From a virus (lineage: Duplodnaviria; Heunggongvirae; Uroviricota; Caudoviricetes), in IMG/VR virus record IMGVR_UViG_2526164664_000018: a stretch of 5,262 nt of DNA; one strand, 5' to 3'. The translations under genes and the position numbers were made by a program. This document shows, piece by piece, positions 2,680 through 3,164 of the stretch; positions within the stretch are counted from its first letter, which is position 1, and every line of letters starts with the position of its first letter. The notes beneath the pieces are model-generated. The model was given only the letters and a program-made list of their open reading frames with translations. It did not search any database and was not told the origin of the DNA.

Positions 2680-3164
2680 ATGTCAGACAAACTCATAATG
2701 CTGGCGAAGGGCCTTTGTGTAATCGTCGGTATTTCATTTTCACTAATGCTGGTTGCTCTTTTTCTTTCCATTACCGTGATAACGCCATCACCTACAAAGC
2801 GCAGCGCGATAAAAAAGCCAGAGAGCTGGAGCTGGCAAACGCAACCATTACTGACATGCAGCAGCGCCAGCGTGATGTTGCTGCGCTTGATGCCAGATAC
2901 TCAAGGGAATTAGCCGATGCGAGAGCTGAAAATGAAACTCTGCGTGCTGATGTTGCCGCTGGTCGTAAGCGCCTGCGGATCAACGCCACCTGCTCCGGTA
3001 CCGTGCGTGAAGCCACCGGCACCTCCGGAATGGATAATGCAACCGGCCCCCGACTGGCAGACACCGCTGAACGGGATTATTTCACCCTCAGAGAGCGGTT
3101 GATGACAATGCAGAAGCAACTGGAAGGGGCGCAGGAATATATCCGCACTCAGTGCCTGAATTAA
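2680..3164 (+). CDS. Rz: Rz i-spanin (lambda Rz-like), apparent 1-nt frameshift in a T5 run separating the N-terminal TM segment from the periplasmic domain
   Basis: ATG 2680 with SD GAGG (2671-2674) encodes [28 protein letters not shown] (TM anchor) and then runs out of frame. Frame 0 from about 2769 encodes [71 protein letters not shown]…[37 protein letters not shown], which closely matches lambda Rz from memory. The ORF-track 2715 start is a TTG and the N-terminus it gives has no TM segment. Inserting one T in the T-run 2759-2763 restores a single ORF. Confidence 0.8.
2917..3102 (+). CDS. Rz1: Rz1 o-spanin lipoprotein, embedded in the +1 frame of Rz
   Basis: 61-aa [64 protein letters not shown]. 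Lipobox VVSA|C, proline-rich mature part, close match to lambda Rz1 from memory. SD AAGGGA at 2903-2908. Lies entirely inside the Rz reading frame, as in lambda. Confidence 0.85.

Follow-up and report, generated by a model that had tools for sequence, protein, structure and literature searches.

Rz of a lambdoid prophage in Escherichia coli O26:H11 strain DEC10D is very probably inactivated by a private 117-bp deletion

Towards the end of the lysis region of a lambdoid prophage of Escherichia coli, a strongly hydrophobic segment and the periplasmic domain of the i-spanin Rz lie next to each other in different reading frames, close to a run of five T residues (T5). The question that this locus raises is whether a single spanin gene has been broken at the homopolymer, as the initial annotation proposed, or whether the two parts belonged to different genes and were brought together by some other event. 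The comparisons assembled here point to the latter, and what is seen is very probably a private, one-off deletion of 117 bp that inactivates Rz rather than a conserved feature of the prophage.

The window, i.e. the whole stretch of DNA that was analysed (5262 nt), is the complete contig AIGS01000024.1 of assembly GCA_000250055.2, a draft of 2012. The AIGS accession corresponds to E. coli O26:H11 strain DEC10D, an stx-negative member of ST21 from France, 1952 (PMC5592225, Table 1), for which about 17 prophage regions have been predicted (PMC5592225). The contig is the late/lysis region of a lambdoid prophage, and its features are collected in Table 1. The holin, which opens the lysis cassette, is likewise annotated as a class II holin in RM8385. 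The inverted repeat just beyond the Rz stop codon may possibly be the terminator of the cassette, although a consensus scan listed its stem on the minus strand only, with a count no higher than in shuffles, which makes it a weak candidate. Rfam returned no RNA family in the window, and NCBIfam gave no matches for Rz, Rz1 or the small ORFs.

Table 1. Positions of the features in the 5262-nt window
Feature	Position	Strand	Evidence or remark
DUF6645 gene, 3' end	1-159		
DUF1378	295-474		
DUF826	515-787		
Class II (phage 21 S-type) holin, intact	864..1079	+	PF04971, E 9e-33
Endolysin, phage lysozyme family, ORF intact	1084..1617	+	PF00959, E 1.3e-24
Antirepressor (KilAC/ANT), split in two	1891..2585	+	PF03374 on the 156-aa part
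5' part of the small gene, codons 1-32	2680..2775	+	phrog_4906
Chimeric 77-aa ORF	2680..2913	+	
T5 run	2759..2763	+	wild-type state
Junction of the 117-bp deletion, CCATTACC	2768..2775	+	MAFFT and BLAST alignments
Rz (i-spanin) remnant, codons 22-152 and stop	2769..3164	+	PF03245, E 4.7e-50
Rz1 (o-spanin) lipoprotein gene, intact	2917..3102	+	PF06085, E 1.5e-19
Inverted repeat AGCCAGC/GCTGGCT with a T run behind it, directly 3' of the Rz stop	3168..3191	+	seen in the sequence
Rha-family regulator	3341-3892		
TonB_C lipoprotein	4238-4564		
DUF3950	4696-4896	minus	
HNH endonuclease	4939 to contig end		

The hydrophobic segment had been taken for the membrane anchor of Rz. It forms the N-terminus of the 77-aa ORF, where the 19-aa Kyte-Doolittle mean reaches 2.65, and it corresponds to residues 1-32 of a separate small gene belonging to phrog_4906 (E 1.2e-15). 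In RM8385 that gene, of 43 aa, is annotated as a CDS of its own upstream of Rz. The intact 43-aa protein (WP_001280922.1) is present on at least 1000 contigs and matches phrog_4906 over positions 7-49 of the 49-position profile (E 3.3e-24); the ORF in the window matches positions 7-38 only and falls short of full length, the C-terminal 11 residues of the small protein having been swapped for out-of-frame Rz sequence. The 77-aa ORF is a chimera, made up of the first 32 codons of the small gene and 45 codons read out of frame across Rz. That the hydrophobic segment and the periplasmic domain lie in different frames, as first reported, holds, and the Rz domain is complete; the identification of the segment as the Rz anchor does not.

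Where the locus is intact, as in the RefSeq and GenBank annotations of RM8385 and of the phage Lys8385Vzw, the 43-aa gene is followed by an 11-nt spacer and then by a 152-aa Rz with its own ATG and anchor (MLSAFTVILLVVCSALWLATD); in the RM8385 locus (L001) the spacer and the ATG occupy positions 3213-3226. The starts of the small gene and of Rz are 143 nt apart in the intact phage and lie in different frames. At the site homologous to the T run, T5 was found in 12 of 12 related loci (L001, L002 and L004-L013), namely those of RM8385, Lys8385Vzw, DEC9A and DEC9E and eight other prophage copies. Of these, the phage Lys8385Vzw has been obtained by mitomycin C induction and plaque purification (PMC7946995), which shows the two-gene arrangement with T5 to be the working configuration; the placing of the lesion within the T run had to be given up in favour of a 117-bp gap at 2768-2775.

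That gap was evident at several scales. In a megablast search with a 601-nt query against 5426 complete E. coli genomes and the phage collection, the best matches covered the query completely but did so in two pieces spanning 718 nt. In an alignment with RM8385, the window is identical over the same stretch save for one gap of 117 nt. Over the whole contig, MAFFT and BLAST alignments gave three SNPs, one base in the A run of the antirepressor gene and the 117-nt gap against RM8385, only two SNPs and the gap against DEC9A and DEC9E (L004 and L010), and ten SNPs, the A-run base and the gap against Lys8385Vzw. The two BLAST pieces overlap at 2768-2775, 5-12 nt downstream of the T5 run, and it is there that the 117 nt are missing. 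Imperfect 8-bp direct repeats flank the deletion, CCATAACC on the left and CCATTACC, the retained copy, on the right; 4 bp are exact and 7/8 match overall. The pair was read from the alignments and was not listed by a repeat finder run on the intact locus, its exact seed being only 4 nt. The DEC9A-type allele, which has the 117 bp, contains CCATAACCTGGATGG...GGCAACAGA. The missing segment begins at codon 31-33 of the small gene and ends at Rz codon 21, taking with it the last 11 codons and the stop of the small gene, the 11-nt spacer, the Rz ATG and Rz codons 1-21, which hold the whole transmembrane domain (TMD). The right breakpoint falls where the Rz homology between different prophages begins. 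Because 117 nt is 39 x 3, the frame offset between the two genes is kept, and Rz codon 22 now follows codon 32 of the small gene with a shift of one base. The locus looks like a T5 frameshift since the TMD of the small gene abuts the Rz domain one base out of frame and near the T5 run.

What is left of Rz is its complete periplasmic domain, with the ATG, the ribosome-binding region and the TMD (codons 1-21) gone. The ORF that holds it (2715-3164), in a frame other than that of the ORF beginning at 2680, carries the full Pfam Phage_lysis (Rz) domain on residues 23-147, corresponding to positions 1-125 of the 126-position profile; this 149-aa ORF is on record in AIGS01000024.1 only. The intact 152-aa Rz (WP_000947261.1, annotated as 'lysis protein') occurs on about 1000 contigs and matches phrog_13, 'Rz-like spanin', over residues 3-151 (E 3.5e-74). 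By location the remnant is an i-spanin gene, lying downstream of the holin and the endolysin and having Rz1 inside it. The Rz of phage lambda is a type-II inner-membrane protein whose TMD, residues 1-24, is its anchor, and the M1K change makes it lysis-defective (PMC5295617). In the window the in-frame N-terminal TMD of such a protein (type II, N-in/C-out) is lacking, and so are the gene's own start and ribosome-binding region, both of which lie inside the deletion. The sole upstream start in the Rz frame is a TTG at 2715, and the purine-rich stretch before it ends just 3 nt away. An alternative start giving a membrane-anchored Rz in a single frame, one of the two findings that the initial annotation had named as its own refutation, was sought in the Rz-frame ORF and does not exist there: no hydrophobic segment lies upstream of HYRDN, and the maximal 19-aa Kyte-Doolittle mean is 0.22, as against 2.39 in the intact 152-aa Rz.

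Rz1 is in a different state. It lies in the +1 frame relative to Rz, encodes a signal peptide with a lipobox (VSAC) cysteine and a short, proline-rich mature domain in an intact ORF, and matches phrog_3198 (E 1.7e-29) besides the Pfam family given in Table 1. Its DNA shows zero differences from that of the intact relatives, and the exact 61-aa protein is present on at least 1000 contigs; one source names its cluster 'RzoD'. The earlier statement that Rz1 is unaffected is borne out. As the sequence stands, then, Rz1 is intact and no single-frame, membrane-anchored Rz is encoded, so that the prophage lacks a normal i-spanin, which fits decay; this much of the earlier proposal of spanin loss stands, with a cause other than a 1-nt frameshift. 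Overall, the initial annotation is partly confirmed as an observation and partly supported as an interpretation.

The junction appears to be confined to this one contig. It was found in no complete E. coli genome, and all of the 49 genomes that cover a 65-nt query across it do so in two pieces spanning 182 nt; nor was the deleted allele found in the phage collection. Patterns for the exact full junction, and for the junction independently of the T run, had no match in the genome, viral and metagenome collections. The exact 77-aa ORF occurs neither among about 15 billion proteins nor in the gene-position index, and the 161-aa chimera that a T6 would create is likewise missing from those proteins.

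Four other explanations of these data have to be weighed against the deletion. It is conceivable, though unlikely, that the DEC10D prophage keeps the 117 bp and an intact Rz, and that the segment was lost in library preparation or consensus calling of a repeat-rich region. The junction is present in a single draft contig, which is short and bounded by sequence common to several lambdoid prophages; the DEC9A, DEC9E and DEC10D assemblies have been flagged for possible sequencing or assembly frameshifts (PMC5592225); and prophage Rz alleles have a mosaic boundary just at the right breakpoint. However, the four exact bases (7/8) at the junction are far too few to cause a k-mer or overlap misjoin by an assembler, and junction-spanning reads must therefore have existed. 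Microhomology-flanked deletions are, moreover, a normal biological outcome, and the strain dates from 1952 and has a long laboratory history. Even if the deletion is an artefact, the reading of the locus as a T-run frameshift fails. According to that reading, a contiguous Rz gene was split by loss of one T from an ancestral T6 at 2759-2763, and the observation behind it is that one added T puts the hydrophobic segment from 2680 in frame with HYRDNAITY. It is scarcely credible when all 12 relatives have T5 and continue from it into a separate 43-aa ORF, when the N-terminus belongs to phrog_4906 and not to the Rz family, when neither the 161-aa product nor the T-run-independent junction pattern was recovered from the collections scanned for them (the proteins for the former, the three nucleotide collections for the latter), and when the 117-bp gap accounts for the whole difference. 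The T6-restored chimera (MSDKLIML..., 161 aa) is a coincidence of the new junction, not an ancestral state. The view that the cassette would be fully intact if the missing T were an artefact fares no better, as T6 would give only this chimera, which is absent from all of the databases searched.

Recoding, in which a low level of a chimeric, functional i-spanin would come from tRNA-Phe slipping by -1 on CUU-UUU-C or from slippage of transcription on T5, is very improbable. A -1 slip at 2761-2763 does give the 161-aa chimera, with a strong N-terminal hydrophobic segment (Kyte-Doolittle mean 2.56) that should be type II (N-in, C-out), and replacing the TMD of lambda Rz by an artificial one leaves the protein fully functional (PMC5295617). 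On the other hand, the zero frame (GCT CTT TTT CTT TCC) contains no X XXY YYZ heptamer, such that only a single-tRNA slip on TTT is possible; no Shine-Dalgarno-like stimulator lies upstream; the stretch 2764-2850 has a folding energy of -13.2 kcal/mol, where shuffles average -14.75 (z +0.59); and the junction is unique, nothing having selected for recoding. A T5 run is also too short for appreciable transcriptional slippage. It is highly doubtful, too, that a heterologous type-II anchor, placed 1 nt out of frame precisely at the natural TMD/periplasm boundary and beside T5, makes this a revertible, low-level or switchable spanin; were it so, a +1 T mutation or rare -1 slippage would yield a working chimeric i-spanin, and the locus would illustrate natural TMD swapping in spanin evolution. 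Next to no probability attaches to the converse of a deletion, in which the window would preserve the original arrangement and 117 bp would have been inserted in the relatives. Nothing speaks for it but the formal symmetry of indels, while the 117 bp encode the start and TMD of Rz and make for a match to the Rz-family profile from the N-terminus (phrog_13 positions 6-153), the segment is present in diverse prophages with different Rz alleles (L005-L013), and the intact 152-aa Rz is on about 1000 contigs as against one for the short form.

With the deletion as the preferred reading, the history of the locus is very probably as follows. The ancestral order was the 43-aa membrane-protein gene, the 11-nt spacer and the 152-aa Rz with its ATG and TMD, with Rz1 embedded in the +1 frame. 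A deletion between CCATAACC and CCATTACC then took out the spacer along with the end of the small gene before it and the Rz ATG and TMD after it, most likely through replication slippage or microhomology-mediated joining. Judging from lambda genetics, the locus would produce no membrane-anchored i-spanin; Rz1 may still be translated, but would be without its partner and alone could not form a spanin complex, and disruption of the outer membrane at the end of lysis would be expected to fail for this prophage. The related genomes have 6-10 Rz-like places each, and several other lambdoid prophages with intact spanins are probably present in DEC10D. The deletion has been seen in a single 5.3-kb contig, from a draft of 2012, and the allele is of a known kind, either ordinary decay of a prophage late gene or a draft-assembly lesion, which opens no new question. 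Its interest lies in the correction: an apparent homopolymer frameshift is a microhomology-flanked deletion of 117 bp, and the supposed Rz anchor is a neighbouring small gene. For annotation, Rz should be entered as a 5'-truncated pseudogene, and the T run should not be 'repaired'. That the periplasmic domain has by accident come to lie nearly in frame with a foreign TMD is a minor curiosity, the TMD of lambda Rz being replaceable.

The surroundings of the junction show some further variation in small genes. In CP060061 (L009 5790-6142), the phrog_4906 N-terminus is part of a longer, two-helix protein of 83 aa, and the Rz allele downstream of it is a different one; the 83-aa protein matches phrog_3246, phrog_1115 and phrog_4493 and is followed by another hydrophobic ORF, of 29 aa. 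Within the window, a small hydrophobic ORF of 31 aa, with a weak match to phrog_6632, lies between ant and Rz at 2582-2677. The small ORFs between ant and Rz look like a mosaic set of tiny membrane-protein genes in the lysis cassette. The TAG of the 77-aa ORF (2911-2913) stands 3 nt before the ATG of Rz1 (2917) and in the same frame as Rz1, and ribosomes terminating there could affect Rz1 initiation.

Several other features of the contig deserve mention. The ant gene is split into ORFs of 58 and 156 aa by an A6 run at 2052-2057, at which RM8385 and Lys8385Vzw have A7 and an intact 231-aa protein. Since the A6 allele is common to DEC9A, DEC9E and several complete chromosomes, the split probably marks a genuine pseudogene that was inherited, and not an error of this contig alone. 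The endolysin carries R43H (nt 1211, A against G in all four of the closest loci), directly preceding the catalytic Asp in the E-8-D-5-T motif. No other contig has this exact endolysin on record, and the change is the second private one in a lysis gene on the 5.3-kb contig; in solved homologues the position is occupied by E or K, so that R43H may be tolerated. A third private difference, at 5189 (T against C in all four of the closest loci), falls within the HNH endonuclease gene with which the contig ends. The 270-nt non-coding gap between the endolysin gene and ant (1618-1890), for which Rfam gave no family match, holds a terminator-like inverted repeat, GGCACCGTAATGGTGCC (about 1728-1744), with a T-rich tail. 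Just 3' of the Rha-family gene, at 3903-3933, is a perfect tandem repeat of CGCCGTATCGT x 2.8 (100% matches). The product of the TonB_C gene, 108 aa long, combines a lipoprotein-type signal (...LVMGC) with a TonB C-terminal domain (PF03544, E 1.4e-14); placed between Rha and the DUF3950/HNH/terminase block, the gene looks like a moron.

Among known systems, the closest are the prophages of RM8385 (O103), DEC9A and DEC9E and the Stx1-converting phage Lys8385Vzw (MT225100). They share with the window near-identical flanks, the T5 run, an identical Rz1 and the same gene order, i.e. holin, endolysin, ant, small ORF, Rz/Rz1, Rha, TonB-like and HNH; the window differs in its 117-bp gap, which takes in the spacer together with the 3' end of the small ORF on one side and the Rz ATG and TMD on the other. 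The likeness to the Rz/Rz1 pair of lambda (PF03245/PF06085; PHROG 13) is also extensive, as the periplasmic domain opens with the same motif in both, Rz1 lies within Rz in the +1 frame and has a lipobox Cys and a proline-rich mature part, and the genes end a holin-endolysin cassette. However, the N-terminal TMD of lambda Rz (residues 1-24) and its periplasmic domain share one ORF, whereas the TMD and start codon have been deleted in the window, and, unlike lambda, the window has ant and small ORFs between endolysin and Rz. Spanin remnants are familiar from the cryptic prophages of E. coli K-12 (rzpD/rzoD, rzpR/rzoR and rzpQ/rzoQ), decayed lambdoid elements in which the Rz-type gene can be damaged and the small embedded Rz1-type lipoprotein ORF survive. 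Those remnants are long-fixed and common to many strains, whereas the allele in the window is private to one contig in which the late region is otherwise near-intact. Finally, the locus resembles programmed -1 frameshift sites, such as those of dnaX (A AAA AAG) and lambda G/GT, in having two ORFs in a -1 relation and a homopolymer near their overlap; it is unlike them in being without a tandem slippery heptamer, a Shine-Dalgarno stimulator, a structure and conservation, its junction having come from a unique deletion.
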